Assembly (NCBI GenBank): GCA_038087875.1
Contig: CM075988.1
Coordinates: 23,128,001-23,192,000, forward strand
From: Malacoraja senta
Lineage: Eukaryota
Length of the DNA: 64,000 nucleotides
Direction of reading: 5' to 3'
The position numbers and the translations under genes were made by a program. This document shows positions 1 through 63,200 of this stretch, piece after piece. How positions within the stretch are numbered: the first letter of the stretch is position 1; the number at the start of each line of letters is the position of its first letter. Under the pieces are notes generated by a model that saw only the letters and a program-made list of their open reading frames with translations, ran no database searches and was not told the DNA's origin.

Positions 1-1646
1 ACAGTTGTTTGGTGAAGCTTCATCATGGCCAATATCAACCACAAAGTGAAGTCAATGATTGCAAGTACCAAGAATCCTCTCCTAAATTGAATCTTGAACT
101 GACTTGAAACTCAATGACTGGGCGGGTGGGACAGAAGCCTAACATCTCACACCACCAGGTTCAAGAACAGCTCCTTTCCTGCAACTATTAGCTTCTTGAT
201 CTTCCCTTTTGCACTGCCATGGACTTGCTTCCTAATTGTGTATTTTTGCACAAATTTTCTTTCAGTGTGCGGTAGAATTTGTGCATGATTTATATATAAC
301 TTCGGTTTTTAGTCTGCTGTCTGAGTCCATGTGCCTGTGAGCAAGTTTTTAATTATACCTGAAGTTCGTCGAGCTTGTGTTTGTGACTACAATCTCGACT
401 TGACTTGATGTGATGCACTGCAGACATACCTATCACAGTCTATTGATGAGACTCCAGCACCCTGAGTCACCCCATTCACAAGAACCGGCAGAGAAACTAT
501 ATGAAGGGTTTGCTACATAGTTCAATGCACTTTTTTGACTGAGTTTTGCGTACGTTTCATTCATACTCAGAGGGGAAGAGATCATCCTTCAAAAGGCATG
601 GTCTGTTTTAAGAAATATGATTGTATTATCACTGCCCTCTGGTGGTCAGATGATGTTACGAAAATAAAAGTATCTTCACACAGAGAGGCATGTGGTGAAC
701 TTTGTTGGACTGTGACAAACGTTCATGCAAAGGGTGGTAGGTGTATGGAATGAGCTGCCAGAGGAGGTAGTTGAGGTAGGGACTATTGCAATGTTTAAGA
801 AACAGACAGGTAAAGGATAGGACAGGATTGGAGGGGAAAGGGACATGTTGGGCAAGTAGGCAAGTAGACACTGTATGCCTCTTTGACTACGTTTTAATCA
901 ATTTTCCTTCAAAGGGAATGGAACAATTATCCCACAATCTCATTCACTTCCCACACTAGAGACAATTAAAATTTTTATTTCACAGATACTAATTAACCCA
1001 TAAACCCGCATCGTCTTTGGGATGTGGGAGGAAACTGGGACACCCGAAGGAATCCCACGCGGTCACAGGGAGAACGTGCAAACTCTGCACAGACAGCGCC
1101 TGAGGTTAGGATCGAACCCGGGACTCTGGCGATGTGCGGCAGCGGCTCTACCGGCTGTGCCACCGTGCTGCCCGACCTTTACCGTTATCTTTTCCAGCTG
1201 CAATGGATGGTTATTGACATGTCAATTGTCTTTCACTCTGCAGAGACGTCCCTTGACCATCAGGTTCAGTCAAGTCAGGTCGGGTTTACAAGGACGCTGA
1301 GCTACTAGTCCAGTGACAATCCTGCTCACAGCAGCATCACCAGCGCATAAACTCAGACAAACGCACAAAAACAAATTATACATAAATGACACTGAAGAAG
1401 GGTCTCGACCCGAAACTTCACCCATTCCTTTTCTCCACAGATGCTGCCTGCCCCGCTGAGTTACTCCAGCATTTTGTATCTATCTTCGGTTTAAACCAGC
1501 ATTTGCAGTTCCTTCCTACACAATGACACTTAACTTATTTGTTTGTGCACTACACGACTCTACGATTGCAAGGCATCAAAGGTGTTCTTTCCCCCATTCA
1601 TTGTACCCTTGGTGTGAGCGCGTGAAAACCCAAGACAGTATCCTAC

Positions 1647-1933
1647 CTGGCAGTTCCCTGCGAAGTTGCTCTGCAATGGTTGCGGACTGTAAGACATGAC
1701 CGAGGGGGGCCCCAGCATTGTGTAGCTGGGACAGGCAGCTTGCATGCACATGTCTTGCATGTACGGTGAGTTGACGGCATCGTGCGAGGGGTAACTGGGG
1801 CAAGGTGACCACTGTGACACCGGCTGTAGGCTGGCAGAGGATGGCTGAGGCAGCCATGTAGTGTGAAAGGTTCCCTCCTCAGCAGGTTGCACTGGTGATG
1901 AAGCAGCATCTGTCTCATGGAACACCGGATGTC
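1647..1933 (-). CDS. POU2AF1: POU2AF1 coding exon 4
   Basis: Acceptor ttatcttcag|GA; GHPVFHETDAA...EEGTFHTTWLPQPSSASLQPVSQWSPCPSYPSHDAVNSPYMQDMCMQAACPSYTMLGPPSVMSYSPQPLQSNFAGNCQ|gtagga aligns to human WLSQPTPATLQPLAPW...HEAVSCPYSADMYVQPVCPSYTVVGPSSVLTYAS. 287 nt. Confidence 0.93.
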
Positions 1934-3169: not shown

Positions 3170-3935
3170 GTATATCAAGAGGACTGGAATACAAAAACAG
3201 AGTTGTAATGCTGAGGCTCTACAAGGCGCTGGTCAGGCGGCATTTTGAGTACGGTGAGTAAATGTGGGCCCCATATCTGAGGAAGGATGTGCTGGCTCTG
3301 GAGAGGGTCCAGAGGAGGTTTACAAGAACGATCCCAGGAATGAGTGGGTTAGGTCGACAAAATTGCTGGAGAAACTCAGCGGGTGCGGCAGCATCTATGG
3401 AGCGAAGGAAATAGCTTCTATTTCCTTCGCTCCATAGATGCTGCCGCACCCGCTGAGTTTCTCCAGCAATTTTGTCGACCTTCGATTCTCCAGCATCTGC
3501 AGTTCCTTCTTGAACATGAGTGGGTTAGTATATGATGAGCGTTTGCCAGCACTGGGCCTCTACTCGCTGGAGTTTAGAAGGTTGAGGGGGGACCTCATTG
3601 AAACTTGCAGATTAATAAAAGGCATAGATAGAGTGGATGTGGAAAGGATGTTTCCACTGGTGGGAGAGTCTAGGACTAGAGGCCGTAGCCTCAGAATTAA
3701 AGGGCGCTCTTTTAGAAAGGAGGTAAGGAGGAAGTTCTTTAGTTAGAGGGTAGTTAATCTGTGGAACTCATTGCCACAGAGGGCTGTGGAGGCCAGGTTA
3801 GTGGATATTTTTAAGGCAGAGATTCTTGATTAGAACGGGTGTCAAGGGTTATGGGGAGAAGGCAGGAAAATGGGATTAGGAGGTAGAGATCAGCCATGAT
3901 TGAACGACGGGAGTAGACTGGCCTAATTCTATTCC
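3170..3935 (+). mobile_element. CR1 LINE fragment, interrupted by the hairpin insertion
   Basis: LYKALVR...LGLYSLEFRRLRGDLIE...RTRG motifs. Confidence 0.85.
3351..3515. mobile_element. Palindromic Penelope-pLTR-derived insertion in a CR1 copy
   Basis: Perfect 64-bp inverted arms 3351-3414 and 3418-3481 with a 3-nt loop; flanked by direct repeat atgagtgggttag (3340-3352, 3516-3528). Confidence 0.8.
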
Positions 3936-4548: not shown

Positions 4549-6085
4549 GACACTAGAATCTGAGATAATTCTCTTTGGAACAATGGAGGTTGAGCAGAGA
4601 TTTGATGGAGGGTTTCAAGGTGTAGCTGGGGTTAGCAAAGAGAAACTGTTCTGTTTGCAAAAGGTTTGAGGATCTGGGGCACAAAGTGATGTGGCAAATA
4701 TAAGAATATATTGTGAATATAAGAAGTTATTTTTATATATGCTGAGATTGGTTGTGAATGGGAATTCATGGCATGCATACTCTCAAAAGGGAATAACATT
4801 GGTACTCCCGGGATTGAGTGGGTTAACATATGATGATGGTTTGACCGCACGGGGCCTACACTCGCTGGAGTTTACAAGGATGTTGGGGGACTTCATTGAA
4901 ACTTACTGAATAGTGAAAGGCCTGGATAGAGTGGATGCAGAGAGGATGTTTCCACTAGTGGGAGAGTCTAGGATCAGAGGAGGTTGGTGAATCTGTGGAA
5001 TTCATTGCCACAGATGGCTGTGGAGGCCAAGTCATTGGGCATTTTTAAAGTGGAGATTGACAGATTCTTGGTTAGTACGGGTGTCAGGGGTTACGGGGGG
5101 AAGGCAGGAGAATGGGGTTGAAAGGGAAAGATAGATCAGCCCTGATTGAATGGCGGAATAGACTCAATGGGCCGAATGGCCTAATTCTGCTCCTGTGAAT
5201 TTATGAACTTGAATACACTAACATACCCCAATGCAGTTTAGGGAATGGCCAACCTCTAGGAGCAGAGGTAGGTCATTCGGCCGATCAAGTCTACTCAGCC
5301 ATTCAATCGTGGCTGATCTATCCTTCACTCTCAACCCCATTCTCCTGCCTCCTCCCCATAACCCCTGACACCCGCCACAATCAAAATACAATAACCTAAC
5401 GCAGACCTATACCCAATCAATCCATGAAAGATTCCGCACCCTGGTGGGTGTAGGAGCTCTAGGAGTACTTGGTGAAGGCAAAGGACACAATCTAGAAGTA
5501 GTACCTTCCCACAAAAGTGTCCATTACTCAGTACAGTAATAAAGCCTCAGTCCCATCAGCAACACTGATGGAGACATCATTAAAAATGATGGACATGCTG
5601 GAGGAACTCATTTACTGGAGTAAACCAAATGGTAGAATAACCCAGAACGGTCTCGACCCAAAATATCACCTATCCATTTTCTCCAGAGATACTGCCTGAC
5701 CCGTATTTTGACTCCGGCATTTGGTGTCCATCTTTGGTATAAACCAGCACCTACAGTTCCTTTTCATTTTATTAAAAGTGATTCTATTTAACACAATATC
5801 TGGTGATAAAAAATAACTGGCGGCTGGTTCTATTCGCTGACGGTCGCCAAAAGAAAGCAAATGATTATGGACCATAGTTACCGTTTTATGTCATAATATT
5901 TGGCACATATGATATAAACAAAAAATAACTAAAATAATGCCAGCTCACTGTCTCTGGCGATAAAAACAATGCCAATTTTAAATGGACTAACAATGACTTA
6001 CTGTATGTACTGTAGATAAATTATTAGGAGTTTCTAGCTGTCAAGTTACACTATTTATGCATTAACTATGTACATTGAATCTTAC

Positions 6086-6128: not shown

Positions 6129-6330
6129 CTGCTTGGCATAAACAAAAATACACAATTAGAAAAATGATAATATATGTTGTTGCTGTAAATACAAGATATT
6201 TTGATCTGAGGAATGCGATTAGTAATTTTATTTTGTAGGTAGGAACTACAGATGCTGGTTTACACTGAAGACAGACACAAAATGCTGGAGTACCTCAGCT
6301 GGACAGGCAGCATCTCTGGATAGAAGGAAT

Positions 6331-6365
6331 GGGTGACGTTTCGGGTCGAGACCCTTCTTCAGACT
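6331..6365 (-). ncRNA. Minimal hammerhead-ribozyme-like core in a Penelope-derived repeat (intron 2, sense to POU2AF1)
   Basis: agt-CTGAAGA-a-GGGT-ctcg-ACCC-GAAAC-GTC-accc on the minus strand. Confidence 0.6.
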
Positions 6366-7436
6366 GAGAGTCGGGGGAGAGGGAGACACAAAGATAAGGA
6401 AGGGTGAAAATGAGACATCAAAATAGATGCGGGCCAAGGAGATTGTAGAATAGATCGTTGTTAGCTCGGAGCAGGTGACAGAAATAAAACAATATTTAAT
6501 CTGTAACTATCTGGCTATGTTTGCTATGTTCTGTAACTGGCAATGTCAGGTCTGTGCCGCAGAGTCTGAAGGTTGTTGTATCCAATGTTGGTCACCATAC
6601 TTTATAGAAAGGGCGTGAACTTCAAGAGATGTCGGAGAAGGTTTCACTGGGATAGTCCCCGTGATAGACGTTTCTGTTGCAAGGCTAGATTGGAAAAGCT
6701 GGGATTGTTCTCTTCAGTCTGTGGAATTCTCTGCCTCAGAGGGCGGTGGAGGCAGGTTCTCTGGATGCTTTCAAGAGGGAGCTAGATAGGGCTCTTAAAA
6801 ATAGCGGAGTCAGGGGATATGGGGAGAAGGCAGGAACGGGGTACTGATTGGGGATGATCAGCCATGATCACATTGAATGGCGGTGCTGGCTCCAAGGGCC
6901 GAATGGCCTACTCCTGCACCTATTGTCTATTGTCTATTGTCTATCACAGAGGTTGAGAAGAGAATTGTCCGTGGCGTTTGAGATCATGATGGGTTTTGAC
7001 ATGGATAGATGGTCCCTGTAGCACATGTTCCAAGGACCAGAGGTCGCAGATGTATGACTGTAGTGGGGTGATGGTGGAAAGTTGTTTTCACACTGGAGTC
7101 CCCAATGACCGGTGGTGTGTCTCAGGAGTCATAGAGTGGAACAGCGTGGAAACTGGCCCATCTGCTCAACGTTCCCACACCTGCCAACATGTCCCATCTA
7201 CACTAGTCCCACCTGCCTGCGTTTGGCCCATATCCCTCCAAACCTGTCCTATCCATGCACCTGTTTAACTGTTTCTTAACTGTTGGGATAGTCCCAGCCT
7301 CAACTGCCTCCTCTGGCAGCTCGTTCCATACACCCACCACCATTTGTGTGAAATATTTACCCCCTCAGATTCCTATTATACAGTGCCGGGTCCATTGGTG
7401 TTTGACACCTACATCAAGAATTTGGTTGGGAGCGAG

Positions 7437-11268: not shown

Positions 11269-12613
11269 CTGGTTTCATTTTCAATCTGTTCCCAGTTCTG
11301 ATGAAAAGATTTCGCCCTCACAATTTATCGCGTTGACCGCACACGCTGACTGAATATTTCCAAAATGTGCTCATTTTCGCGTGAGTCACCTTCACCTCAG
11401 CTGCCTTGGCCTTCTCTGGCCGACCAATGCCGGGTCACCCCCCCCCACCCCAACGGCACCTGCACCTGACTAAGTGAGAAACCACCAAACACACGCACGC
11501 TTCAAGTGATTCACTGCTGTTGTTTACTTGTCCTTACACCCATCACCCACAGCTGTAGGATGTTCGTGACTGTAATCTCCGACAAGATCTGAAACCTTAA
11601 TCACCCAAGAAAAAGGCACCGATTTCTGTCATTTTACTTTACAAGGCCATATTTTAAATGATTATCTAAAGATGAAGCAGGAATTATTAAATTATTATGT
11701 GTAGGAAGGAACTTGAGATGCTGGTTTAAACCGAAGATAAGACACAAAAAGCTGGACTTACTCAGCGGGACAGGCAGCATCTCTGGAGAAAAGGAACAGG
11801 CAATTCTTAGTCTGAAGAAGAGTCTCGATCCGAAACGTCACCTAGTGTATTCCTTTTCTCCAGAGATGTTGCCCGACCCGCTGAGTTACTCCAGCTTTTT
11901 GTGTCTATATTCGATGTAAACGAGCATCTGTAGTCCCTTCCTTGACATGTGCCATGAGATGCTGGTTCATACCCAAGATGGACACAAAGTGCTGGAGTAA
12001 CACAGCCAAATCTTGAGCCAACTCTGCCTTACTTCTCTGGTGACAAAAATCTATGCTTTATTCTCTCTCTCTCACCAGAGATGCTACCTGACCCACTGAG
12101 TTACTCCAGCTTTTTGTGTCTAACTTTGATTCCATTATTGATGGCTTCAGGTAGGTAAATCTAAAATATTACCCACCTTCCTAACAACTGCTAGTATGAA
12201 AGAGATACAAGGGACTGCTGATGTTGGAATCTTGAGCAATAAAACAAAGTGCTGGAGGAACTCAGTCAGTCAGGCAGCATATGTGGAGGGAATGGGCAGA
12301 TGACATTTAGGATCGGGTATCTTCTTAAGAATTGATAGCCCTCTCTTCTCCAACTTTCTCCCCGCCTACAATCAGACTGAAGAAGGGTCCCGACCTGAAA
12401 TATCATCTGCCTGAACTGCCGAGTTTAGTTTAGTTTAGAGATATTGTGCAGTAACTGACCCTTTGGCCCTCCGGGTCCACGCCGACCAGCGATCCCCGTA
12501 CACTAGTTCTATCCTACATATTAGGGACAATTTTCAGAAGCCAAGTAACTTACAAACCTGCACGTCTTTGGAGTGTGGGAGGAAACCGGAGCTTACCCGG
12601 AGAAAACCAACCC

Positions 12614-13103: not shown

Positions 13104-16100
13104 TTCTATCCTACACACAAGGGACAATTTTCAGAAGCCAATTAACTTACAAACCTGCACGTATTTGGAGTGTGGGAGGAAACCGGAGCTTACCCGGAGA
13201 AAACCAACCCAGGGAGAAGGTACAAATTCCACACAGACAGCACCCATAGTCAGGATCGAACCTGGGTCTTTGGCGCTGTGAGGCAGCAACTCCACCGCTG
13301 CGCCACCGTGCCGCCCACTGAGTATTTGCAGTATTGTAGCAAGATAGATGTGGGAGTGAATGATTTACGAAGCAGCAGGTTGGTTGGAAATTGCACATAA
13401 CCTCCTTTGAAGAAGTTGATGACTGCTTTTATTGTGGTTTGTCAAACCTTTGTATTGATCTATGAGCGGTAGAGCCTCCCCTGTTTTGCAGCACGGTTAC
13501 CTTCACTTCTTCCCACACAGTGTCAATGATCAGCTGAAGATTCACAGTTGTACATATCAAAGGAAATGTGCACACATACAGTACTTGCTCATCCAACACA
13601 GAAGAAGTGCCTCATATTATCTAACCTCAAAAACCATTGCTGAAAGGTCATTTATAGAGAAATAGTTCTGATAAAATGTCACTGACCTGAGATGTTGTCC
13701 CTGACATTTACCCATGGCACTGGAGAGTGCAGGAGGACTATTTCCACATGGAAGTAATAATTGATTCAGGTTGCCCATTTCATTTTTGCCATCATTTAGT
13801 TGGGATGTCAGGGGTTATGGGACCAAGGGCCAATGTACTGATGACCACGTGGGTTTTCTCCGGGTGCTCCGGTTTCCTCCCATATTCCAAAGACGTACAG
13901 GTTTGTAGGTTAACATGGCTTCTGTAAGTTGTAAAATTGTCCCTAGTGTGTTGGATAGTGCTTGAGTACGGGGGGGGGGGGGGGGGATCGCTGGTCGGTG
14001 TGGACTCGGTGGGCCGAAGGGCCTGTTTCCTCGCTGTATCTCTAAAGTCTAAAGTTCCCAAACAGCTAGAAATCCCAACTGCCGAAGAAGATGAGAGCCA
14101 TCCTTTTTAGGAGTGTTATTTATTCGGCACTCTCCGAACTCACGGCTCTCGTGTGGGTAGTGTGAATCGAAACATTGCTACTTTTTCTGCACTCTGTTTC
14201 CTATAAACTCACGTGAACAAGATGAAACACGGGGTGCTTAAATGGCTTAGCTTGAACATCATAACCCTGCCAAGTCCTCAGTGAGTTCACTTTTACAATC
14301 CACAGAAATGCAAAGCCTGGAAGAAAAACTAATTTCTAAACATACCTGAGCTATGACATTCCAGCAACAATAGTCAGTGCTCGTGGATTGTAATTGTAAT
14401 GTAATACTCTAATCTTCTCAGTAGGGATTCCCAGCTTCTATGAATACAGATTTCTCAGGTAGGGTCCCCATGAGACTTATTGTGCCAGCTTACAATAATT
14501 AAAAAAACAAAACAGGATTTTATGTAGGCAAGTTCCCAAACAGCCAGGGTGAGGAATCAGTGGGTGGAAAGGTCATAAGGTCATAAGTGATAGGAGCAGA
14601 TTTAGGCAATTCAGCCCATCAAGTCTACTCCGCCATTCAATCATGGCTGATCTATCTCTCCCTCCTAACCCCATGCAAACATGCAACACTCCCCCAGCTG
14701 GGCTCTGCAGGGTCAGGCTGGTTCATGGCTGGGTTTCAGGTATTAACCGTGAACTTGCAACCATTGCGACCTTTCCTCTCATTTTTTTTCTGGGAGGTAG
14801 GTGTTGTTGACAAGGCCAGCGTTTGATGCACCTTTCCAAATGCCCTTGAGGAGGAGGTGGTGAACAGTTCCCCCCAACACCCACAGTTTGTGTGGTGGGA
14901 CAGATACCATTGAGTTGGGGGCCACACCCTCTGTGGTCTCGTAGATCTGGGACTGATTGCTGATTGTAAGAGCAGCAAAATACTACAACGTGAATTCCCC
15001 TAACTGCTGTTTTGGTGGAAGCTGTAACTTGTTTCCTTCAACCTCCCCTCAAATTTGCCTTCAAAAAGTCAAAAATCATTTTAGTTTAACAATGAGTTTT
15101 TAGTTTAGTTTAGAGATACAGACCCATCGGCCCACCGAGTCCGCACCGACCAGCGATCCCCGCACATTAACATTATCCAACACAAGGGACAATTTTTTAC
15201 ATTTACACCAAGCCAATTAACCTACAACCCTGTGCGTCTTTGGAGTGTGGGAGGAAACTGAAGTTCTCAGAGAAAAACCTCGCAGGTCACGGGAGAACGT
15301 ACAATACAGACAAGCAGCTGTCGTCAAGATCGAACCCGGGTCTCTGGCGCTGTAGGTGTTGTAAGGCAGCAACTCTACCGCTGTGTCACCCTGCCACCCT
15401 GTCATATGAAATGTGTCATATTCAACACAAAAAAAATAATCATCAATTTGTCTTTCGTTGGTACTAAGGAAACAAATCATCCAGTAACATCCCACTGCCA
15501 ATTTCCTCTCACTGGCCTGCCCACTTCATTTCCATTGCCAACATCCCTGTGTGGTCTGAATCGTAACATTCAATGGAGACACAAGGAACTGCAGATGCTG
15601 GTGGAACTCGGCAGGTCAGGCAGCATCTTGGGAGGGAACGGACAGAATCAGGACTCTTTCAGACTGATGGAGTAGAGGGAAGAAAACTGGAGAAGAGCGG
15701 TGTGGATGGGGCAAAGTCTAGGTGGATACAGGTGAGGGGGGTTTGGTAGGCGGTTGGGTGGAGTTGGTGACCAAGGGTTGTGGTGAAAAGAAGACTTTGT
15801 CACTTACTCCACCCATCTGCCAAACAACCAACTCCCTTCACTTGTATCCACCTATCACTCACCAGGCTTTGCCTCTCACCCACCTCACTTTTCCAGCATT
15901 CTCTCCACTCCCTCCAACTCCATCAGACTGAAGTGGGGTCTTGGCCTAAAATGCTATCTGTCCATTCCCTCCACAGATGCTGCCTGACCTGCTGAGTTCC
16001 TCCACCATTTTGCCTTTGGCTCATAATTCAATTCAATGATTCAATTATACTTTATTGTCATGTGTACTTACATATACATCTAAGATGAATTGTAGTGTAA

Positions 16101-18788: not shown

Positions 18789-19184
18789 GAAACGTCACTG
18801 ATCCATGTTCTCCAGAGATGCTGCCTGACCCGCTGACTTACTCCAGCACTCTGTGAAACGTCACCGATCCATGTTCTCCAGAGATGCTGCCTGACCCGCT
18901 GAGTTACTCCAGCACTCTGTGAAACGTCACCGATCCATGTTCTCCAGAGATGCTGCCTGACCAGCTGAGTTACTCCAGCACTCTGTGAAACGTCACCAAT
19001 CCATGTTCTCCACAGATGCTGCCTGACCCGCTGACTTACTCCAACACTCTGTGAAACGTCACCGATCGATGTTCTCCAGAGATGCTGCCTGACCCGCTGA
19101 GTTACTCCAGCACTCTGTGAAACGTCACCGATCGATGTTCTCCAGAGATGCTACCTGACCCGCTGACTTACTCCAACACTCTGT
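18789..19184 (+). repeat. 66-bp minisatellite, 6 units
   Basis: gaaacgtcaccgatccatgttctccagagatgctgcctgacccgctgagttactccagcactctgt starting at 18789, 18855, 18921, 18987, 19053 and 19119. Confidence 0.95.
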
Positions 19185-19214
19185 GTCTTTTTTTTTGTAA
19201 ACCATAGTGGTTGG

Positions 19215-45573: not shown

Positions 45574-48279
45574 ATTCCCAACAACTCCCCACTCACCTAC
45601 AGACCAGTGGTCAATTAATAATGATAACTACCAACATGCGTATCTTTAGAATGGCAGAGGAAAGCAGAGCCCCTGAAAGAAACCCTGGTGGACACATGCA
45701 TGTTGGGAAGTCAGTATTGAACAGAGGTTGCTGAAGCCACAAGTCAGCAATGGAATCCTGTGCTGTCCACTTAGGGCAAGAAATGATCAAACACCAATGG
45801 ATCAGAATTGACGATCATTTAAAATCTCTGGAGTCTGAAGAAGGGTCTCGACCCGAAACGTTGCCTATTCCTTCTCTCCATAGATGCTGCCTCACCCGCT
45901 AAGTTTCTCCAGCATTTTTGTCTACCTTTGATTTTTCCAGCATCTGCAATATTTTCTTAAACACTTAAAATCTCTTTGTATGTAAGGATTGGACAACTTA
46001 GATTCACGGTTGTTCTGTGTAGGGAGGAACTGCAGCTGCTGGTTTAAACCGAAGACAGACACAAAAAGCCAGGGTAACTCAGCGGGTCAGGCAGCATCTC
46101 TGGAGAAAAGGAATAGGTGACATTTGTTCTGATGAAGACTACTTCTTACTTCTAATAATATGCATTTTATGGTTTCATGTAGCTGTGTAAAGTGAGTTTC
46201 CGCTCATGCTTTCCGCAAGATGAGTTTCATAAGTTCATAAAGTCATAGGAGCAGAATTAGGCCATTCGGCCCATCGGGTCTACTCTGCCATTCAAACATG
46301 GCTGATCTATCTTTCCCTCTCAACCCTATTCTCCTGCCTTCTCCCCATGACCCCTGACACCCGTACTAATCAATTATCTCGTCTTGATCAAAACATCTGG
46401 ATGAGGTGAAATGGTTCACCAGTAAAAAGCAGGTGAATTTGGAAAGGGACTCAAAATGTGTTCCTCTGGATCTGTTGGATGTTGGGAAAACAGTGGATAA
46501 AGTTGGAAACCATCAACATAAACACAGATAAATTCATAGTCATACGGCAGGGGAACAGGTTTTGCAGTCCAATTCATCCAAGCCAACCAAGATGCCCATC
46601 TAAGCTAGTCCCATTTGCCTGCATTTGGCCATTATTCCTCAAATCTTTTCCTTTTACTTTACCACTAGTTTTCCGTGAATGAAATGAATAAATCCAGTCA
46701 ACAGCGTTCAAAAATACCTTAATTACACTAACAATCTTGGCAAAAATCAACTTGTTTCTTTGAAACGGCACAGAAGACATGTCTCTGTCAGCGAGATTGT
46801 GAGAGGGATGTGTTTCAGCACTGCCTTTACACGTCAAAGTTCCTCTTCAGTACCAAGGGAAAAAATCCGCCTGATTCAATGGTATTTTCAACTGTAATGT
46901 GTTTTGGAAATGAGCATGACCCAAGCCAACCATGGCAATTTGCCCCGCCTAGATACCTACTTCAATATCTGCTATCTATTTCCTATGTGCGCAAGTCTAC
47001 CTGTGGAAAATTATTTTAAAGCAGATTGGAAATTGAGAGGAATGGAAAGCCTCAGCTGACGAGAAACAGGTGCCGTTTGATCACCATATTAATGATCAGA
47101 CGACACGAATCATACCTCAGTTACCAAGGGGAAAAAATTAAAAATATTAACACCCCACAACGGAACTTGTTTGACAATTAAATATATGTGTAGGAAGGAA
47201 CTGCAGAATTGCTGGTTTAAACTGAAGATAGACACAAAAAGCTGGAGTAACTCAGCGGGTCAGACAGCATCTCTGAAGAAGGGTCTCGACCCGAAACGCC
47301 ACCTGTTCGTTTTCCCCAGAGACACTGTCTGACCCGCTGAGTTACTGCAGCTTTATGGGTCCATCTTCAGTTAAATAATAGCTCCGTTCATTTGATTTCA
47401 ACTAAAAATAATACATCCTCCGCAAGCCAATCGATGCATAGAATAATATTTCCTCCTCACTAATCCTCGATTCAAATGCCTGTGAATATTTGTGGGAGTT
47501 GACTGCTCTAATTTTGGCTAATTCTTTTATTTATTTTGCTAGGTAGATATTTCAATTGTAGATGATTGCGTTAAAACACTGAACCTTCTCTTGTTCAGTG
47601 AATGGAATAAAATGGTGAAAACAAATGACTTCATCAATAAATATCAATTGATGAAAATTGTAGAAGAGCAAAGAGACATCTCTATTTTTTTAGCCAGTGC
47701 CTGTTTGATTTGATAAAGTGTCTTATCAGAATTTAAAAATCAATGAAGCCAATTTCTACGCTTTTACATTGGAAAACATTGAGAGACTCAGTGGTGCCTG
47801 AGCAGAATAAGATAACGACTCAGAAAGTAAAGGTTTCCTCAAATCCAAACCCACACTTTCTTGGTATATTTAACTATTTCATTTCCCCCAAAGGTGCTGG
47901 AGAGATTAAGTATTAGCATGGATAATGTAATCATTCTAACTTGTTTCATATTTTTCAAACGGCTCCAAATGTGGCAGAGTATTTGGAAAATAACAACAAA
48001 AAAAGTTAGTCAGTTATACAGCATGGAAACAGGCCCTTCGGCCCCACTTGCCCATGCCGACCAAGATGCCCCATTTATTGTACACATAGCTTCATAGAGT
48101 AGTAGCTATGATACAGTAGCTTAAATGTTGCCTTTCTTTAACAAAGGACAAACAAGAGGGAATTTTACAACATACATTCTGCTTGAAAATTATTAATCTT
48201 CCAGAAACCTCAAAATATAAAACACACAACGTATATATGTCTTTGTGCAGACATGTAACAAAACATTATTATTATATTA

Positions 48280-48720: not shown

Positions 48721-50573
48721 CCTATGAGTCCTTATTAGAAAAATAAATATACAATACTTCATAATTCAAAACAATTTACTCAAGAAGACTGGGTCCTTCT
48801 GCTGAATGACACCAAGGCAAATTCCCTGTGTGTGAATACATAGAAACATAGAAACATAGAAAATAGGTGCAGGAGTAGGCCATTCGGCCCTTCGAGCCTG
48901 CACCGCCATTCAATACGATCATGGCTGATCATCCAACTCAGTATCCTGTACCTGCCTTCTCTCCATACCCCCTGATCCCTTTAGCCACAAGGGCCACATC
49001 TAACTCCCTCTTAAATATAGCCAATGAACTGGCCTCAACTACCTTCTGTGGCAGACAATTCCAGAGATACTTGGCCAATAAACGTATTCAATTCACTTAT
49101 TCACTCATATGAAAACTTACCTCATCCACATTAAAATACTCTGTCAGTAAAATACTTTGAACAGGGCCATGATTTCAATTACAATAGATAGATTGAATTC
49201 CTTTATAATTCCATACAAATGCATTAATTGTCTGTCAACTAATATCTAAGAGTATAATTATCAGGGTAACTGAAAGATAAAACTATTCATTGAGTTGAGT
49301 AGCTGGTGTTTTTTTTAAGCTGATGGGACAGAGATTTACAACATGTCTGTTTATAAATAAAGCTCATAAGGTCATTCAGGAGCTGCTCAACTTTATCTGT
49401 GGGATTCAAAATTCTGAACCAGCGTTTTCAATCACACTACCTCTTTAAGGTATCTCTTTTGTGTCTCTTCGGTTTAAACCAGTGCCTGCTGTTCCTTCCT
49501 GCACATACCTCGTTAAGGTGCTTGTTAACCTGCTGACTACTTCCAGGTGAGACACAAAATGCTGGAGTAACTCAGCGGGGCAGGCAGCATCTCTGGAGAG
49601 ACGGAACGGGTGACGTTTTTGGGTCAAGACCCTTCATCAGATTGAGAGTCAGGGGAGAGGGAGACAAGTGCCTTCTGTCTCTCCAATGTTTATCTCAATT
49701 GATTTGTACCCTGCTAATATGGGATGCACATAGCCACTGATAGTTCTACAGTATAACTGCCGGGCCTTACTAATATTCTGTTAAAGCAACCTAAAATTAG
49801 TAGGTAGACAAAAATGCTGGAGAAAGTCAGCGGGTGAGGCAGCATCTACGGAGCGAAGGAATAGGTGACGTTTCAGGTCTTGACCCGAAACGTCACCTAT
49901 TCCTTCGCTCCATAGATGCTGCCTCACCCGCTGAGTTTCTCCAGCATTTTTGTCTACCTACGATTTTTCCAGCATCTGCAGTTCTTTCTTAAACCTAAAA
50001 TTAGTACTTTCTTGAAGCATCTTTCCTGATTTAAGATGAGTTTGAATTAACAGAATAAATCTGTGGATAACATACTTGTCGGATCAGTAAACCATTATCT
50101 CAATAAGATAATTTCATTTTTTGAATATTTCATAAATCTCTAATATTAAATATAAGTCCATGAGGTCATCGCTTCAGCCATTGGTGTGACCATAACACAA
50201 TACCACATTTTGAGTTTGTTATTATAATAAAATAATGATTGAATTAACATTTATGCACAAATATGCACTTTTACACATACAAAATTTGTTAGATAGGTGA
50301 GAAAAGTTCTTGTTATGTTTGATATCTTTCCTAGCTATTGGCAAGTGGACCTGAAGACAGCTCTTAAATCTTTGACACTTGACACGTGGAGTAAGTTTAA
50401 ATGTCTCTGTACACTGTGGACGGCTCGATTGTAATCATGTATTGTCTTTCCGCTGGCTGGTTAGCACGCGACAAAAAGCTTTTCACTGTACCTCGGTGCA
50501 CGTGACAATAAACTAAACTCAAACTAAACGTGTAAATTGTGCTGCATGTTAAAGAGAATAAAATTATACTCAC

Positions 50574-51241: not shown

Positions 51242-51698
51242 GGGCAGCACGGTGGCGCAGCTGGTAGACACAAAATGCTGGAGTAACTCAGCTGGACAGG
51301 CACCATCTCTGGAGAGAAGGAATGGGTGACGTTTCGGGTCGAGACCCTTCTTCAGACTGATCCGTTTCGGGTCGAGACCCTTCTTCAGACTGATAGCTGG
51401 TAGAGCTGCTGCCTCACAACGCCAGAGACCTGGGTTCAAACCTGATTTTGGATGCTGTTTGTGTGGAGTTTGCGCGTTCTCCTTGTGACCACATGGGTTT
51501 CCTCTGGGTGCTCCAGTTTCCTCCCACAATCAAAGATGTGTAGGTTTGCAGGTTAATTGGCCTTTGTAAAGTGTCCCTAGTGTGTAGGGAATGATTGAGA
51601 AAGTGGGGATACATGGAACTCATGCAAATGGGTGTTTGGTGATCGGCATGGGCTCGGTGGGCCGAAGGGCCTGTTACCATGCTGTATCTCTAAACTAA
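51242..51698 (+). mobile_element. V-SINE interrupted by the hammerhead-bearing insertion
   Basis: SINE head split by an insert flanked by direct repeat agctggtaga (51259-51268, 51395-51404). Confidence 0.8.
51324..51394 (-). ncRNA. Tandem dimer of the hammerhead-like core (33-nt period)
   Basis: atcagtCTGAAGAagggtctcgacccGAAACg occurs twice head-to-tail; the second copy ends in GTCaccc. Confidence 0.55.
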
Positions 51699-52489: not shown

Positions 52490-53300
52490 AGTCCATGTAG
52501 TTGGCAAGACCAAGCATAGGCAAGATAACTGTTTCACCGAACACTTGAGCTTGGCCCACCAAAGGCCTACTGGATCTCTGGTTTCTAATCATTTCAGCTC
52601 ATGTACCCATTCCCATTCCGAACTTTCAGTCCTGGGCCTCCTGCATTGCTCAGAGTGAGGCCACACACACATGGACTAGTTTAGTTTTGTTTATTGTCAC
52701 GTGTACCGAGGGACAGTGAAAAGCTTGCTCAAGAAGGAACTGCAGAGGCTGGAAAATCGAAGGTAGACAAAAATTAGAGGGAAACAAGTGACTTCTGTCT
52801 CTCCAATGTTTATCTCAATTGATTTGTACCCTGCTAATATGGGATGCACATAGCCACTGATAGTTCTACAGTATAACTGCCAGGCCTTACTAATATTCTG
52901 ATAAAGCAACCTAAAATTAGTAGGTAGACAAAAATGCTGGAGAAACTCAGCGGGTGCGGCAGCATCTATGGAGCGAAGGAAATAGGCAACGTTTTGGCCC
53001 GAAACGTTGCCTATTTCCTTCGCTCCATAGATGCTGCCACACCTGCTGAGTTTCTCCAGCATTTTTGTCTCCCTACAGTGAAAAGCTTTTCTGGTGGAAC
53101 CTTATATTCCGCTTGGGTAGCTTACAGCCCAACAGTACGATCATTGATTGTCATAACACTATGAACATGAACAGTCTGAAGAAGGGTCCCGACCCGAAAC
53201 GTCACCCATCCTTGTTCTCCAGAGATGCTGCCTGACCCGTTGAGTTACTCTAGCAATTCCTGTCTATCTTTGGTATGAACATTGAATTCTCCAATTTAAG
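52490..53300 (+). mobile_element. Degenerate Penelope-like endonuclease fragment interrupted by younger insertions
   Basis: VGKTKHRQDNCFTEHL...LVSNHFSSCTHSHSELSVLGLLHC, resuming as IFRLGSLQPN (about 53105) and MNIEFSN (about 53275). Confidence 0.7.
53173..53206 (+). ncRNA. Minimal hammerhead-like core
   Basis: agt-CTGAAGA-a-GGGT-cccg-ACCC-GAAAC-GTC-acc. Confidence 0.55.
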
Positions 53301-54784
53301 GTAACACCCCACCCCTTCCAACCCCCACTCCCCCTCTCTTTCCTGTCCACCCTAACCTTGGGTGTTGACTCATTTGTCTCACTAATCTGCCCCCTTCCCA
53401 ATCTACCTGTATCCATCCCATTTGGATTCACATTTCACTCCAGCTCTCCTTTATCTGACATCCTTTTGTCTCCTTGTCATCTCTGGCATTTGTCCACCCA
53501 TCAGCCAAGCAAACCCTGCACCTCAGCAGTATCCACCTATCACTTGCCAGGCTCTGTCCCTCCCCTATAGGGTTTTCTCCCCACTATTACAATCAGTCTG
53601 AAGAAGGATCCTGACCTGAAACATTACTTATCCATTCCCTCCACAAATTCCCACAGCTAGCACTTAGTTCCTCCAGCACTTTGTGTTTTATTAAGATTCC
53701 AGTATCTGCAGTTCCTTGTGACCACATATAATTTGTTGGTGATTAATATTTACTCTTCATTATTCAGTAAGAGTGCATTTTATATTTTACACAGGAATAA
53801 TACAGTATCAATTGATTCTTGCTTGAAATGAGCATTATAATGAACCATGAAAGGGGGCCAGTGCCTGTTTTATGATCACGGCATTAAGTCTGTTTCTTCT
53901 CCTACTCTTATTCTCTTCCCACGGATGCTGTCTAACCTGTTGAGTATTTCCATCATTTTTCTGTTTTTGAGACATAGAGGCATACAGCGTGGAAACAGGC
54001 CCTTCAGCCCAACTTGCCCACACCAACCAACATGTCCCATCTATACTAGTCCCATGTACCTGAGTTTGGCCCATATCCCTCTAAACCTATCCTATCCATG
54101 TACCTGTCTAAATGTGTCTTAAACATTGCAATAGTGCCTGCCTCAACTACCTCCTCCAGCACCTCGTTCTATACATCCACCACCCTTTGTATAAAAAAGT
54201 TACCCCTCAGGTTCCAAAGACATACAGGTATGCAGGTAAAATTGGCTTGGTATAAGTGTAAACTTTCCCTAGTGTGTGTAGGATAGTGTTAATGTGCGGG
54301 GATCGCTGGTCAGCGTGGACTCGGTGGGCCGAATGGGCCTGTTTCCATGCAGTATCTCAAAACTAAACTAAACTAAACTAATGCTTTCCCCCCTCACCTT
54401 AAACCTATGTTCTGGTCTCTCGTCTTCTAAAACCTTTAGATATGTGTGTCAAATAATGGATGAAACATTTAGAATACGATAAAATTTACGTAAGGTGAAT
54501 CACACTTTAATTTTCCCTTTCAGTAAAACCTCTGATAAATCTTACCAATGTATTAGTAATTTCCCTATATCTATAGGGCAAAACCCACATGAGGTTTTGA
54601 TTTTAAAAGTGATTGCAAATCTAATTCTCACTCTTGGAAACAAATTTTATCATTAAGAAACGTGACAGTGTGATGAATCTTGAGCAAAAAATACAAATTG
54701 CTGGAGTAGCATAACTGGTCAGGCAGCATCTCTGGAGAACAGAGATAGGTGCCGTTTCGAGTCGGGATCCATCTTCAAGAGCAC

Positions 54785-55051: not shown

Positions 55052-55088
<37 letters not shown>

Positions 55089-57210: not shown

Positions 57211-60200
57211 TCCTGAAATTTTCTAAGTCAAAACAGCAGGAGATAGATCCAATTACACAGCTGAACAACTCACTGACATATAATGCAGGCCAAATGATCT
57301 CCCTCTGTGCTCTCCCCAATATAGAATAAAAAATCCAAACTTTTATTAACATTATAAGTCACCAAATCCAAATGCAATTATCACAGTGAATGGGTTATAG
57401 GAAAGAAGTTGGCTATTATGGGAAAAGACTCAGAAATTTCTTATTGTTCTCAAACCGATATTCCATTTTATGAGTTAGGTTTCATGACTTTCATTTTTAA
57501 ACTGCACAACTCAATTCCTTCACTCTGGGGGAATGATTCATGATGATCTGTACTGGGGACATCATTAATAATAAGAATGACACATTTGGCCTTTGTAAAG
57601 TCCACTTTTCACATGCTAAAATAGGATAGGTGGATGGCAAGAACCCTTTTACAGGTCCAGCAAGCTATGGGCAAAGTACTGGGTCTGAGGTGAAAATGAG
57701 CCCACGTTCCTCCTACAAAGGAGAGTTACGACCTTTTAGAAAGGAAATAGAAGGGTTGGCCATGGACTTGCTGAGATCACCCTGCCTCAGGTAACATCCT
57801 CGCCCACAACAACACCTGCGTGGGTTTTCTCCGAGATCTTCGGTTTCCTCCCACCCTCCAAAGCTGTACAGGTTTGTAGGTTAATTGGCTTGGTAAATGT
57901 AAAAATTGTCCCTAATGTATGTAGGATGGTGTTAATGTGTGGGGATCGCTGGTCGGCGCGGACCTGGTGGGCCAAAGGGCCTGTTTCTGCGCTGTATCTC
58001 CAAACTAAACTAAACAGGCACAAGTCCAGGGGTACCCCACAGATACAGCACTTGATGTATCTTGTGTCAGAGGTTAAGGGGAGAAGGCGGGAGAATGTGG
58101 TCAGGAAGGAGAGAAAGATCAGCCATGATTGAATGACGGAGTGGACTTGATGGGCCGAATGGCCTAATTCTGCTCCTATCACATAATCTTATGATGATCT
58201 GGACATGTATTGTACTCCCCACAGTGCCATCTTATCGATGCAAAGCAGAGAATCAACTTGTTTTATCAAATACGCACAGAACATACGATCATCTTTTTGT
58301 GCCAACTTTAATGTTTACACTCGTGTTGTAGATCAAACTTTTAATAATTGTTCAAGATGAGTTATTTATTTGATATTTAATGTTTTTTTTTAATGATTTT
58401 AAATTACAAATTATTAAATATCCCTCACAACTTTTGTAGCCTGCAAAGAGAAGTCAGAACACAGCAAAGTGACCAAGGACCTTTATGTGGCGACTATTTG
58501 AATACCTTGGGTATGCAAGCTAAGAATTTCACTGTGACTTGTCACATGTGACAATAAAGTATTCAATTCAATTCAACTCAGCTGTATCTCAGGGAAGGAT
58601 CTCTGCATTGCATCGTTGGTGCCTCTGGTATCATTCAATGAGCACCAAAGTAGCTGCCAGAGGAGGTGCTGTAATAATCAGGGTGGCACGGTGGCGTGGT
58701 GGTAGAGTTGCTCGCAAACAGCACCAGAGACCCGGGTTTGATCCTGGCTACGGGTGCTGTCTGTATATTGTTCGCATGTTCTCCCCGTGACCTGCGTGGG
58801 CTTCCTCCGGGATCTCCGGCTTCCTCCCACACTCCAAAGACATACAGGTTTGTAGATTAATTGGCTTGGGTAAAATTGTAAATTGTCCCTAGTGTGTGTA
58901 GGATAGTGTTGGTGTACAGGGATCGCTGGTCGGCGTGGACTCGGATAGGGCTGAAGGGCCTGTTTCCGCGCCGTATCTCTCAACTTAACTAAACTAAAAA
59001 AAAATCCAGCTTTTGTGTCGAAACGTCACTCATTCCTTCTCTTCAGAGATGCTGCCTGTCTCGCTGAGTTACTCCAGCTTTATGTGTCTATCTTCGGTTT
59101 GAAGCAGCATCTGCTGTTCCTTCCTAAACATTCAAAAGAGAATTAGAAAGGTGCGTGGATAGGAAAGGTTTAGAGGGATATGTGCCAAACACGTGGCGTG
59201 ATGCGGCGATGACGCAGCGTGATGATGTATATGACGCAGCGTGACGCGACGTGATGACGTATTGACGGGCGGTATTTTTTCAAGTGTCACAACATTTTTT
59301 TGTCACCGCTGGATTTTGAAATGTTCAAAATCTTTTGGCGACACTGATATGTCGCCGAAAAAATCGGCAAGTTATCGGCCTCCTATAGCCACCCTTTCAC
59401 TGCATCAACCGCCCCCCCCCCCCCCTCCCAATTCAGCTCCCTGACCTCAACCTCGATTTAATGGGAAATTAATGACAAATATCAATAACGTCATCATCAT
59501 TACGAATGCAATCTTTGTGTCACTCGTTAATCAAAAATCGCTTTTCTATGAAGTAAAGGTGAAGATATTTATTTAGTTTATCAGGTATCGGTTCACTGTG
59601 GATGGCTTGATTGTAATCAGGTATAGTATTTCCGCTGGTGGACACAAACTGCTTGAGTAACTCAGTGGGTGAGGCAGCATCTCTGGAGAGAAGGAATGGG
59701 CGACGTTTCAGCACAAAAGTACTGGTGCTGTTGATGTGGAGTCTGCATGTCCTCCCTATGACTTCAAGAGTTTTCCCTTGAATGCTCCAGTTTAGTTTTA
59801 GTTTAGTTTAGAGATATATCGTGGAAACAGGCCTTCGGCCCACCGAGTCCACGCCGACCAGCGATCCCCCCCACCCTGCCCACACAGTAGGGGCAAATTT
59901 TATACCAAGCCAATTTATCACCAAACCTGTACGTCTTTGGAGTGTGGGAGGAAACCGAAGGTCTTGGAGAAAATCCACACGGTTACGGGGAGAACGTACA
60001 AACTCGGTACAGACAAGCACCCGTAGTCGGAATCGAACCCGGGTCTCTGATGCTGAAAGCGCTGTCAGGCAGCAACTCTACCACTGAGCCACCATGCCGT
60101 CCTTTGATTTCTCTCCAACTTCCCTCTCCTCATGAAAGACATTAACTGAGAAACAAGGAACATGAAAAGACTCGATACATCAAAAAAAAAACCATCAGGG

Positions 60201-63200
60201 TTACATATTCTAATCCTCTGTGGTCTACCACTTCTGCTGTGCATCACTGAATGCAAAGAAAAGTTAAGCACTTTTTTTTAAGGTTATTCTCCTGATAATA
60301 TCGGAAAAAATAGGTTCCATGCATTTATATATATAGGCATTTCCACTTCAAAAAAAGATATATTTAAGAAAGTATTTGGTTAAGGCAGAGGAAGTATGCT
60401 GCTATACAGGAAAGTAACGGCAGTCACCTCCTCTAATAATGCCACAGATTTTTTTTTTCTGTTAAAGTAGTTCATATTTCCAGCACGGTGGCGCAGTGGT
60501 AGAGTTGCTGCCTTGCAGCGCCAGGGCACCGGGTTCGATCCTGACCACTGGTGCTGTCTGTATGGAGTTTGCACGTTCTCCCCCTGACCTTTGTGGGTTT
60601 TCTCCGGGTGCTCTGGAATCCTCCCACGCTCCAAAGACGTGCAGGTTCGTAGGTTAATTGGCTTCGGTAAAATTGTAGATTGCCCCTACTGTGTGTGTGA
60701 GTGTGTAGGATAGAGTTAGTGTGTGGGGATATCTCCATCTTTTCTTTTCTTATTTCTTTTTTTTCTCTTCTGCACTGCTTTGGTAGCTTAGGGGTCTTTT
60801 CCTGCTCTTTTCTATTTTATTTATTTTCTCTTCATTCTTTTCTTTTTTCTTTCTTTGTTTTCCTTTTTTTTTTTTTTTTTCTTTTTTTTTAAAGGTAGGT
60901 TATAAGTTTAAAAATGAAGCTGCACAGTAATTGTATAATTGTTATGCCGATCGTCTTATCCTTGTACAATTACTTCTAATAAAAAAATTAAAAAAAATAA
61001 ACTAATCAACATTCAAAAGAGAATTGGACTGGTACATGGATAGGGAAGGGTTGGAGGGATTGGTTGCTTGTGTACCCAAAGGGGCAGGTTCAATGTCTGA
61101 CCCAGAACAGACATAAACTCCACGTCTTAAGTTGCAGGGCTTCAAGACCACAGCGCCTCAGAAGGTGCATTGTCAAAACTTGTTCCCCTCTCAATGAAAC
61201 ATCAGCTGACAGATGTACATGTGGCCACTGTCTGAACTCCCACAAAGGAAAACCCACCACCTCCTCACTTAGTTTCTGAGGGTTGACTTTCATCTCTGTT
61301 TCCTCCTGCGATATGCTCGTCAGGGAGTAGAGACGGATGCAGTGCTGAATGGAACCTGATCAGCTCCAAATTGCCACATGATCTGAAAAACAGGAGAGAA
61401 TATCAATATATCTTTTAACATGCCTTAAGTTTTGAACGCACCTATCATTTTCCAGTCTACACTTTTTTCATTAGGAATTGGCCATTTGGAATTGAATGCA
61501 GCTAGTTGAAGGGTAGGTTCCCTTCCATAGAACACGGCACAGGGGTCGACACTAAATGCTGGTGTAACTCAGCAGGTCAGGCAGCATCTCTGGAGAAAAG
61601 GAATAGGTGACGTTTCGGGTCTGGACCCTTCTTCAGACTGGTCTGAAGAAATCATACACGCGGTCTGAAGAAGGGTCCCGACCCCGAAAAAGTCACCCAT
61701 CTTTTTTCTCCCGACAGAGCACACGGAGGGAAACCCACGCGGATCCAGGCAGCACATGCAAACTCCACACAGACAGCACCCGGGGTCAGAATCAAACCCG
61801 GGTCCCTGGCGCTGGGAAGTAGCAGCTCTACCCGACGCGCCACCGTGCCGCCCTGTGTGTGCTACCCACAGTGGTTTGTGGAGGGAGAGTGAAATGCAAT
61901 TAGATCTCTCTGAATTAGGAGCTGCATTGAACTCCATTCAACACCAGTAGTCGAGAAACCATGAGACAAACTGTGAGATCTTGGAGATAACCTAGTCCAA
62001 CCAGATAGAATATAAAAAGCAAAAGAAAATAGGAGCAGACAAAATATGTAGGAAGGAACTGCCGATGCTGGTTTATACCGAAGATGGACACAAAATGCTG
62101 GAGTAACTCAGCAGGTCAGGCAGCATCTCTGGAGGAAAAGAACAGGTGATGATTCAGGTCGGAACCGTTCATCCGACCCAGTTTTCTCCAGAGATGCTGC
62201 CTGACCCACATCAGCTACTCCAGCATTTAGTGTCTATCTTCAGCAAATAGAAGCAGTTAAGACCCATTCAGCCTGCCCAACCACACAGCTGCCTCACAAC
62301 ACCAGAGACCCGGGATTGAGTCTGACCCCGGGTGCTGTCTGTGTGGAGTTTGCATGTGCTGCCTGTGCCCTCCGTGTGCTCTGGTTTCCTCCCACATCCC
62401 ACATCCCAAATGAACGACGGAGTGGACTTGATGGGCCAAATGCCCTAATTCTGCTCCTATAACTTATAAACCTGTGAAGCTGTTGGCAATTGTATTCCGA
62501 CTTCCAGCAGTGGCCGGGACCTCTTGTGGGGAACCTTTTTAATTCCACTTCCTTGGTCTTCGCATACTCGTCCTGCCCTGAGTCTCATTGCCCAATCTTT
62601 ATCTCAAACTGCCTTCCCAAGTAAACTCTTCCTGGTACACTCCTCCGGTGAGGAATTAGACAATAGACAATAGGTGCCTTCGAGCCAGCACCGCCATTCA
62701 ATGTGATCATGGCTGATCATCCACAATCAGTACCCCGTTCCTGCCTTCTCCCCATATCCCCTGACTCCGCTATCTTTAAGAGCCCTATCTAGCTCTCTCT
62801 TGAAAGCATCCAGAGAACCTGCCTCCACCGCCCTCTGAGGCAGAGAATTCCACAGACTCACCACTCTCTGTCGGAAAAAGTGTTTCCTCGTCTCTGTTCT
62901 AAATGGCTTGCCCCTTATTCTTAAACTGTGCTTAACTTAGCGCATACCGAGGTTTGAAAATTGATCATGACTTCATTCAGCATTCAATACAACACTGATC
63001 CTCAACTTGAAACATCAGAAGGGAGCCCTGGACATTAATAGAATCATATCTACAGCTAGAAAAAGAACAGCAAATATGCTGTAATCAGTTTACGATGTCT
63101 TTAGACAGCACTGGTGGTGAGTAGTTCCTGTTGATTGATGAGTGTTCAGCTGTGAGGTTAAGAGGCTGCTGAGTGGAGTTGAAATTAAACGTGACAGTGC

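Follow-up and report, generated by a model that had tools for sequence, protein, structure and literature searches.

What gives rise to the many short repeats, each built around a minimal hammerhead ribozyme motif, that are scattered over both strands of a 64,000-nucleotide stretch of Malacoraja senta DNA (GenBank assembly GCA_038087875.1, contig CM075988.1, positions 23,128,001 to 23,192,000 of the forward strand; the whole stretch is called the window below)? The repeats are 3' ends of an endonuclease-bearing Penelope-like element (PLE), each made of its pseudo-long terminal repeat (pLTR) and, optionally, a tail of 30-40 nt. We consider it probable that they are separate insertions of such ends, probably reverse-transcribed from RNA that the ribozyme had left uncut. 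Both the element type and the ribozyme motif were already in the literature, and the finding is, as first described, an ordinary one for that reason. The only part found to go beyond published knowledge is a fixed 5' boundary.

A first-pass annotation, made from the letters alone, had reported a window-wide family and listed 17 coordinates, at all of which the motif is present within a few bases. The C3 nucleotide of the core, which serves as position 0 of the element throughout, lies at:

Plus strand: 1392, 11812, 12377, 19464, 23290, 35779, 38935, 45835, 47273, 53176, 61665
Minus strand: 6362, 24266, 28560, 33354, 51355 and 51388, 61636

A degenerate 28-nt pattern covering the core, stem II and NUH has 14 matches at no more than one mismatch, whereas 100 dinucleotide shuffles gave 0.00 on average. 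Twelve of the window's copies were used to build an nhmmer profile, which at E<0.01 recovered 61 segments of a repeat ~137 nt long, 32 on the plus and 29 on the minus strand, amounting to 5,645 bases or 8.8% of the window. The family is thus real and abundant, as had been claimed, and was undercounted. The tallies given below use 52 arms, which leaves aside 3 segmental-duplication copies, 5 internal units of a tandem array and one copy cut by the window end. No hammerhead family of Rfam matched in the window at E values up to 10, and the Rfam microRNA (MIR) matches in the window are the fold-back copies. Contigs from four public sequencing runs (X5, X18, X19 and X21) were overlaid on the reference copy 33220-33492 with an 85% filter; the positions of loose ends are those among the matches listed, beyond which there are 600 more, and are biased by the filter. 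Metagenome contigs scanned for a pattern gave 0 matches.

At 19208-19342 the window encodes the C-terminus of a GIY-YIG endonuclease (81% identity to the relative P0001, E 1e-10). Such a C-terminus had been noticed ahead of the motif at 19464, and the target-site duplication (TSD) now places this insertion at 19218-19557, where one reads in order 40 endonuclease codons, a stop, a pyrimidine-rich stretch, the motif and ~65 more bases. An older endonuclease end, at 52500-52676 and 53077-53133, leads to a decayed motif copy at 53598, and a third GIY-YIG relic, interrupted by a repeat resembling a short interspersed nuclear element (SINE), lies at 30092-30254 on the minus strand. In run X19, 72 loose ends at 33493 continue from the 3' untranslated region (UTR) into the endonuclease (agreement 0.78). 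Outside the window, the longer relatives P0009, P0026 and P0029 combine a reverse transcriptase (RT) with a CX4CX2C linker and GIY-YIG, and the zebra shark relative P0025 reads past its stop into a peptide like the translated motif (8/11 to 9/12 identical), which ties the same motif independently to an RT-bearing element. With the TSDs, one-sided tails and head-to-head arms described below, these C-termini bear out the Penelope derivation proposed at first pass. The linker type CX2-5CxxC marks Neptune and Nematis (PMC8557442), of which Neptune is the one reported in vertebrates (10.64898/2026.07.22.740005). On these two grounds the parent is probably of Neptune type, an assignment made by sequence through relatives of 44-81% identity, the only sequences in which the linker is seen. 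Four gene models (P0003, P0009, P0011 and P0015) fuse host exons to the PLE endonuclease end; these fusions are probably annotation artefacts of an abundant repeat.

The anatomy of the copies is that of PLE insertions. TSD scores of at least 9 were reached by 13 of 31 candidate units, as against 4 of 400 random flank pairs; the duplications are 9-15 bp long and mostly AT-rich, and no microsatellite targeting was seen. The 61 segments fall into two 3' end classes, 24 ending at +122..+128 and 34 at +84..+111, with 3 shorter ones. In the contig overlay all four runs show a 3' loose-end peak at 33227, and two of them have a further one at 33261-33270. Twelve head-to-head pairs have arms 84-100% alike, with the tail usually on one arm. 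Their junctions are twelve different ones, two centred on stem II and others on short inverted microhomologies. This corresponds to the published signature of PLEs, namely 5' truncation, an inverted partner and a one-sided 30-40 nt tail (PMC8557442), together with TSDs and palindromic junctions read as the result of self-priming (PMC3846280).

The hammerhead cut site is not where the copies, as a class, begin or end: 39 of 52 arms span it. A different point is favoured. With 5' ends curated by hand, 20 of 52 arms begin within -8..+4 of C3, which corresponds to a stop rate of 0.076 per nt in this interval versus 0.007 downstream and 0.010 upstream, i.e. about tenfold (binomial p 3e-12). An abutting TSD pins down six of these boundary events, and an inverted partner does so for six. 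Contigs pass into mixed flanks at the same place, at 33356, that is -2 (88 contigs of X19, 4 of X21), at 33355 or -1 (9 contigs of X5) and at 33357 or -3 (20 contigs of X18), and no junction falls at the cut site among the contig-overlay matches listed. The steep drop in depth at the boundary in X5 and X18 was not used as evidence for a transcript start, since contigs cannot show it and the organisms differ. The boundary lies in a TCAGT that follows a pyrimidine tract and fits the initiator (Inr) consensus. An Inr-like element has been described in a rotifer pLTR (PMC3846280). No published description of a fixed 5' boundary was found in the papers searched; one may exist in Repbase/Dfam, in subscription papers or in supplementary material to PMC4209133, to PMC11167929 or to the 2026 preprint. 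An origin from RNA polymerase III transcripts was dropped, no A box being found by eye.

These data can be assembled into a scheme. The element protein would nick AT-rich DNA and begin the cDNA downstream of the motif at one of two sites, giving the two 3' ends. Internal initiation of reverse transcription at two start sites that define the tail, with unprocessed RNA as the main substrate, is known from in vitro work on Anolis Poseidon (PMC11167929); such initiation in the upstream pLTR would give exactly the run-off copies seen here. The cDNA would then run through the uncut hammerhead, and about two thirds of the cDNAs that reach the 5' edge of the motif would go no further; the likeliest reason is that the initiator-like TCAGT is where the RNA starts, and run-off copies of ~100-135 nt would result. 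Those primed in the downstream pLTR would go on into the 3' UTR and the endonuclease. Lastly, a cDNA that folds on stem II, or meets a short inverted microhomology, would prime itself or switch template, producing hairpins. One may tentatively go a step further and suppose that the copies record the 5' end of Penelope RNA, the commonest product being strong-stop-like cDNA that extends from the tail across an uncut hammerhead to a start 2-3 nt before C3, and that a minor class beginning at +28..+30 stems from rarer templates cut in vivo. Were this so, the ribozyme would sit at the very 5' end of the transcript, which would explain its 2-bp helix I.

Several observations weigh against this account. 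Five of the 20 boundary copies (5644, 20351, 38107, 54688 and 18768) lack a clear TSD or inverted arm fixing the end. The TCAGT with its preceding pyrimidine tract matches a splice acceptor no less than an initiator. Five arms, from 4 events, do start at the cut site, at +28..+30 (nominal p=0.012, post hoc and with ambiguous ends), and a minority of templates may have been cut before copying. No full-length element, RT domain or RNA end was seen in the 64-kb window or in the contigs overlaid on it. Pfam, applied to 279 stop-to-stop frames of at least 65 aa, gave no RT or GIY-YIG match; it returned weak others and the exons of POU2AF1 (OCA-B), in whose locus the window lies (PF09310 at 1563-1964 and 8248-8487, minus strand). 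From the 285 frames listed, 5 low-complexity ones at 36947-37371 and one at 19320-19529 were left out, and a 45-aa endonuclease frame was added.

Copies and pairs in the window, with related pieces, are the following:

1392..1521, plus: short copy starting at C3, with a long 3' end and tail; the abutting TSD shares microhomology with its first bases
3351..3514: head-to-head A1 pair with a 13-bp TSD; its two arms, identical at 64/64 positions, begin at +30 (2 nt beyond the cut site)
5644..5764, plus: old short copy, start ~+4
6234..6430, minus: copy with pyrimidine-rich upstream sequence; intact motif 6335-6362, on the sense strand of a POU2AF1 intron
11699..11945: head-to-head pair; plus arm from -3, minus arm near +28; more pieces at 11957-12006 (minus) and 12070-12132 (plus)
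12207..12408: two arms of old subfamily C, head-to-head
15562..16013: head-to-head pair, also of subfamily C; each arm carries a long stretch of upstream sequence
16984..17080, minus: short tail-less copy, start +1; TSD with microhomology
18768..19194, plus: short copy, then a tandem array of six 66-bp units that begin at GAAAC, the CUGANGA half of the core being absent
19218..19557, plus: longest young copy; endonuclease to 19342, stop, pyrimidine-rich 3' UTR, intact motif 19464-19491; 11-bp TSD
19756..19959: head-to-head pair of subfamily A2; arms start inside stem II (+6 and +16), one tailed; 14-bp TSD
20351..20444, minus: short copy, start -2; canonical CUGAUGA core
23223..23375, plus: copy with upstream sequence; inverted duplicate at 24182-24332 through segmental duplication, counted once
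28465..28692: head-to-head pair; minus arm intact, from -6; plus arm from +9, tailed
33220..33492, minus: young A1 copy with 139 nt upstream, intact motif 33327-33354, tail and 14-bp TSD; reference of the contig overlay
35774..35873, plus: tail-less copy, homology from -4; candidate TSD 13 nt further upstream
38107..38241, plus: short copy with tail, start -3
38931..39062, plus: short copy with tail, start -2 after two extra bases; 13-bp TSD; G12 mutated (CpG)
43110..43271: head-to-head pair; arms start at ~+48 and +29
45830..45962, plus: short copy with tail, start -3 after GG; intact motif; 11-bp TSD
46017..46139, minus: copy, start ~+21
47188..47373: head-to-head pair with TCTG microhomology junction; plus arm from -1
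49458..49666: copy with short upstream sequence (49531-49666, minus) and tail piece (49458-49504, plus)
49800..49993: near-perfect fold-back centred on the stem II loop, one arm tailed; 15-bp TSD; minimum free energy -124.8 kcal/mol, z -22
51263..51395, minus: copy with a 33-bp duplication of the 5' part of the motif, the first copy without U16.1; 10-bp TSD; start -7/-8
52497..53722, plus: old long 3' end; endonuclease relic 52500-52676 and 53077-53133, 3' UTR, decayed motif 53598
52728-53075 and 53169-53273: younger insertions breaking the old 3' end 52497..53722
52118-52317: inverted-duplication mirror of the end of 52497..53722
52920..53080: A1 fold-back within a chimeric insertion, its centre at the stem II GGCC
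53171..53279, plus: tail-less copy with intact motif, start -4; 9-bp TSD; inside the endonuclease relic
54688..54777, minus: decayed short copy, start ~+1
59019..59129, plus: copy, start +19, where stem II has its base; another of this kind at 59633-59714 (minus)
61545..61712: head-to-head unit; its junction, a 10-bp palindrome, lies at -2, as does a second restart
62046..62243: old head-to-head pair; minus arm from -2, tailed

The array at 18789-19185 is a minisatellite of six 66-bp units derived from the element stretch +20..+86. The chimeric insertion at 52728-53075, bounded by a 14-bp TSD, consists of a tail piece, ~145 nt from the flank at 49656-49800 and then the A1 fold-back; its donor region is 92% alike over 308 nt, and the donor locus carries an A2 copy, not A1. 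Its make-up suggests two template switches. Two inverted segmental duplications, 23131-23470 / 24086-24425 (99.7%) and 51746-52317 / 53521-54093 (96%), each contain a PLE end with its flank.

Other origins can be imagined for copies of this kind. The short ones could form an independent, non-autonomous SINE-like family, in which solo pLTRs are transcribed from TCAGT and the ~135-nt RNA is mobilised in trans by the Penelope protein. This rival, possible but in our view rather doubtful for the family as a whole, shares the run-off from uncut RNA, differs only in the source of that RNA, and may hold for some subfamilies, as may the label of non-autonomous given at first pass. By hand tally, none of the 14 edge-reaching arms of A2, B2 and D, counted with two A-type intermediates, goes upstream, versus 9 of 15 for A1, B1 and C, so that some short copies may come from short stand-alone masters, and non-autonomous PLE derivatives have been described (PMC8557442). 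However, A1, B1 and C yield long and short copies with the same downstream sequence, the purine-rich loose ends at 33360 in X21 and X5 indicate that other subfamilies have upstream sequence too, and one window is a small sample. The boundary might also be set by a 3' splice site, an intron end (pyrimidine tract and CAG) just before helix I, where bound splicing factors or a processed RNA end would stop the RT. The pyrimidine share over -45..-6 is 0.72-0.90 in 7 of the 8 copies with upstream sequence, CAG stands at -4..-2 in 7 of these 8, position -2 is still G in most boundary copies, with -3 variable, and the end of the intron of Drosophila virilis Penelope (PMC2377424) maps to the 5' end of helix I (PMC4209133). 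Yet a pyrimidine-rich 3' UTR need not be a splice site, and the copies bounded by TSDs have only 0-4 extra bases before the boundary, so that no upstream exon was captured inside the TSDs. For this reason we prefer a transcript start and hold the splice-site explanation to be unlikely.

At first pass the family had been taken to be retrozyme-like, and a non-LTR retrozyme (LTR, long terminal repeat) would be made of tandem units cut by paired hammerheads, circularised, reverse transcribed and reinserted. The motif does have a dimer-type palindromic stem III, retrozymes derived from pLTRs have been reported in vertebrates including one cartilaginous fish (10.64898/2026.07.22.740005), and the five arms starting near the cut site could be counted in favour; so could one tandem joint of X19 that maps to ~+28 (33324 to 33266, with two letters between), which GTY microhomology explains equally well. 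In retrozymes, however, every tandem unit has a complete hammerhead of its own, usually a canonical one (PMC7229834; 10.64898/2026.07.22.740005), and in the 64 kb no tandem with two complete motifs occurs among 27 tandem-repeat rows, the 66-bp array being without CUGANGA and the 33-bp duplication without U16.1 in one copy. There is no circular permutation, the arms that span the cut site hold both flanks in element order, and helix I has 2 bp and no loop 1, unlike the canonical type I hammerheads of retrozymes (PMC7229834). The retrozyme-like interpretation therefore gives way to a PLE insertion signature, and we judge a retrozyme origin very improbable. That the hairpin copies should be miniature inverted-repeat transposable elements (MITEs) of DNA transposons, with the motif incidental, is hardly credible: long perfect inverted arms flanked by duplications do recall them, but arms and single copies share one pLTR sequence, every pair has its own junction, one arm is tailed, and the TSDs range from 9 to 15 bp instead of being fixed. 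Insertion of PLE 3' ends copied from uncut RNA remains the account that we prefer.

How far does the ribozyme itself bear on this? The first-pass description, a minimal type I hammerhead with palindromic helix III, is supported: the core is full, 15.2-16.2 is palindromic, and the motif lies in a PLE pLTR. The 11 core positions (of the set C3 U4 G5 A6 N7 G8 A9, G12 A13 A14, A15.1-U16.1 and H17) are kept in all 6 subfamily consensuses, the palindrome reads ACGU in the consensus and loop 3 is absent, helix II has 4 bp, and G10.1 is found in 29 of 31 arms. C11.1, which lies within a CpG, is C in 29 of 38. An extra A after A9 and a very short helix I had been entered as caveats. Both are present, but the former, found unpaired between 9 and 10.1 in 28 of 30 arms, is no anomaly, since an unpaired base at 9/10.1 belongs to the definition of these minimal hammerheads (PMC4209133). 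Core, stem II, NUH and the stem III palindrome are all intact in 10 of the 24 arms that cover the whole motif.

In the comparison between subfamilies fixed beforehand, the core was indeed more conserved than its flanks, with 0 of 11 versus 15 of 56 positions variable, though weakly so (one-sided Fisher p=0.047; 0/11 versus 27/95, p=0.033, with the tail included). Subfamilies differ inside the motif at loop II, H17, 11.4, 1.1 and 1.2; the changes at 11.4, 1.1 and 1.2 keep the pairs as G-U wobbles, and old subfamily C adds two CpG changes. Within subfamilies the non-CpG core differs at 15 of 279 sites and the downstream sequence at 124 of 2036 (p=0.79), as expected from neutral decay of single copies. 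G12 is changed in 6 of 29 copies, lost through its CpG context. Other results lend the active fold no support. The contrast between core and flanks is gone when all 26 structured positions are counted (5/26, p=0.33). The covariation proposed at first pass as a check showed no excess over shuffles, 335 of 500 reaching the observed 86.9% paired (22 copies), and no two-sided, compensatory change in helices I or II occurs among the subfamily changes. The hammerhead is never the minimum-energy fold, as monomer or dimer, with a probability of stem II of 0.00-0.36, and the two-dimensional (2D) dimer fold comes to -6 to -7 kcal/mol versus -20 kcal/mol or lower for the cofold. An unfavoured active fold agrees with published reports that motifs of this type have low activity or depend on protein (PMC4209133, PMC11167929), and a dimer result of Lunse et al. 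is relayed by a review (PMC6765202). The intact motif at 6335-6362 sits between POU2AF1 exons, and its being tolerated on the sense strand of the intron would fit little or no monomer activity. In our reading, selection probably acts on the hammerhead in active masters only, and its cleavage is probably weak, in dimer form or aided by protein, the dispersed copies being dead passengers. The overlay variant table, in which no change in CUGAAGA, GAAA or stem II reaches 3%, was not used for selection, as the 85% filter drops other subfamilies. A long-range helix between body and tail, +47..+55 / +107..+115, was predicted in 3 of 3 folded copies, with z only -0.9 to -1.8, and may mark the region of RT start.

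Comparison with known systems places the window copies among the minimal hammerhead ribozymes (min-HHRs) of the pLTRs of metazoan PLEs described by Cervera and De la Pena (2014; PMC4209133), which are present in thousands of copies in fish, coelacanth and Xenopus. They share the full core with its unpaired base, G10.1-C11.1, the palindromic 15.2-16.2 without loop 3, and the occurrence mostly as solitary copies, with opposite-strand pairs 100-700 bp apart. They differ in helix II (4 bp, versus 7-8 in Schistosoma and 6 in D. virilis), in the 2-bp helix I and in N7, which is mostly A; a sharp 5' boundary is not described, nor are cartilaginous fish named, in the parts of that paper covered. With endonuclease-bearing Neptune PLEs (Craig et al. 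2021, PMC8557442; Arkhipova et al. 2013, PMC3846280) they have in common a C-terminal GIY-YIG, 5' truncation, an inverted 5'-truncated partner, a 30-40 nt tail on one end, TSDs of 8-10 bp or longer, palindromic inverted junctions and, in the relatives only, the CX2-5CxxC linker. Unlike these, the window holds only the last 40-60 endonuclease residues, and the targets are AT-rich, without microsatellite targeting. Poseidon of Anolis carolinensis (Frangieh et al. 2024, PMC11167929) is alike in its two RT start sites defining the tail, its AT-rich targets, a hammerhead that is not needed for insertion and the use of uncut RNA as substrate. It belongs to a different clade, and its open reading frame (ORF) starts at stem II, whereas no long ORF follows the motif in any copy here. 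Non-LTR retrozymes (Cervera and De la Pena 2020; Li et al. 2026) have in common with the window copies a type I hammerhead, pLTR ancestry and, for the short copies, no coding capacity; the copies differ from them in a minimal, not canonical, ribozyme, in having no complete head-to-tail units, and in ends off the cut site.

The in vivo role of PLE hammerheads is still open (PMC8557442, PMC11167929). With about one copy per kb and sharp ends defined by TSDs, a genome of this kind makes it possible to count cut versus uncut templates and to locate a transcript start without an experiment. Should the copies indeed record the 5' end of the RNA, genome-wide counts of the two classes would allow the firing rate of a PLE hammerhead in vivo to be estimated for the first time. 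For repeat annotation in skates and rays, the ~135-nt pieces and hairpins should be entered as PLE ends and not as MITEs, microRNA precursors (the Rfam MIR matches) or retrozymes.

The window also contains unrelated features. At 5102-5350 a different repeat forms a long hairpin, with a partial Rfam MIR856 match far below the cut-off. At least three other high-copy repeat families are present, for example at 952-1173, 2051-2435 and 2458-2707 with their many matches; one of these is young, its copies being 92-97% alike, and has 7-bp tandem repeats at its end, as at the 3' end of a long interspersed nuclear element (LINE). Finally, a single-copy sequence at 32579-32651 on the plus strand has a fold like that of the hepatitis delta virus (HDV) ribozyme and resembles the CPEB3 ribozyme. 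It scores 27.3 bits with Rfam RF00622, whose cut-off is 35 (E 0.0046 over the window and 3e-5 locally). P2, P3, L3, P1.1 and the J4/2 cytosine are in place, and P1 is one pair short with a mismatch; the sequence is probably the 5' end of a decayed LINE.

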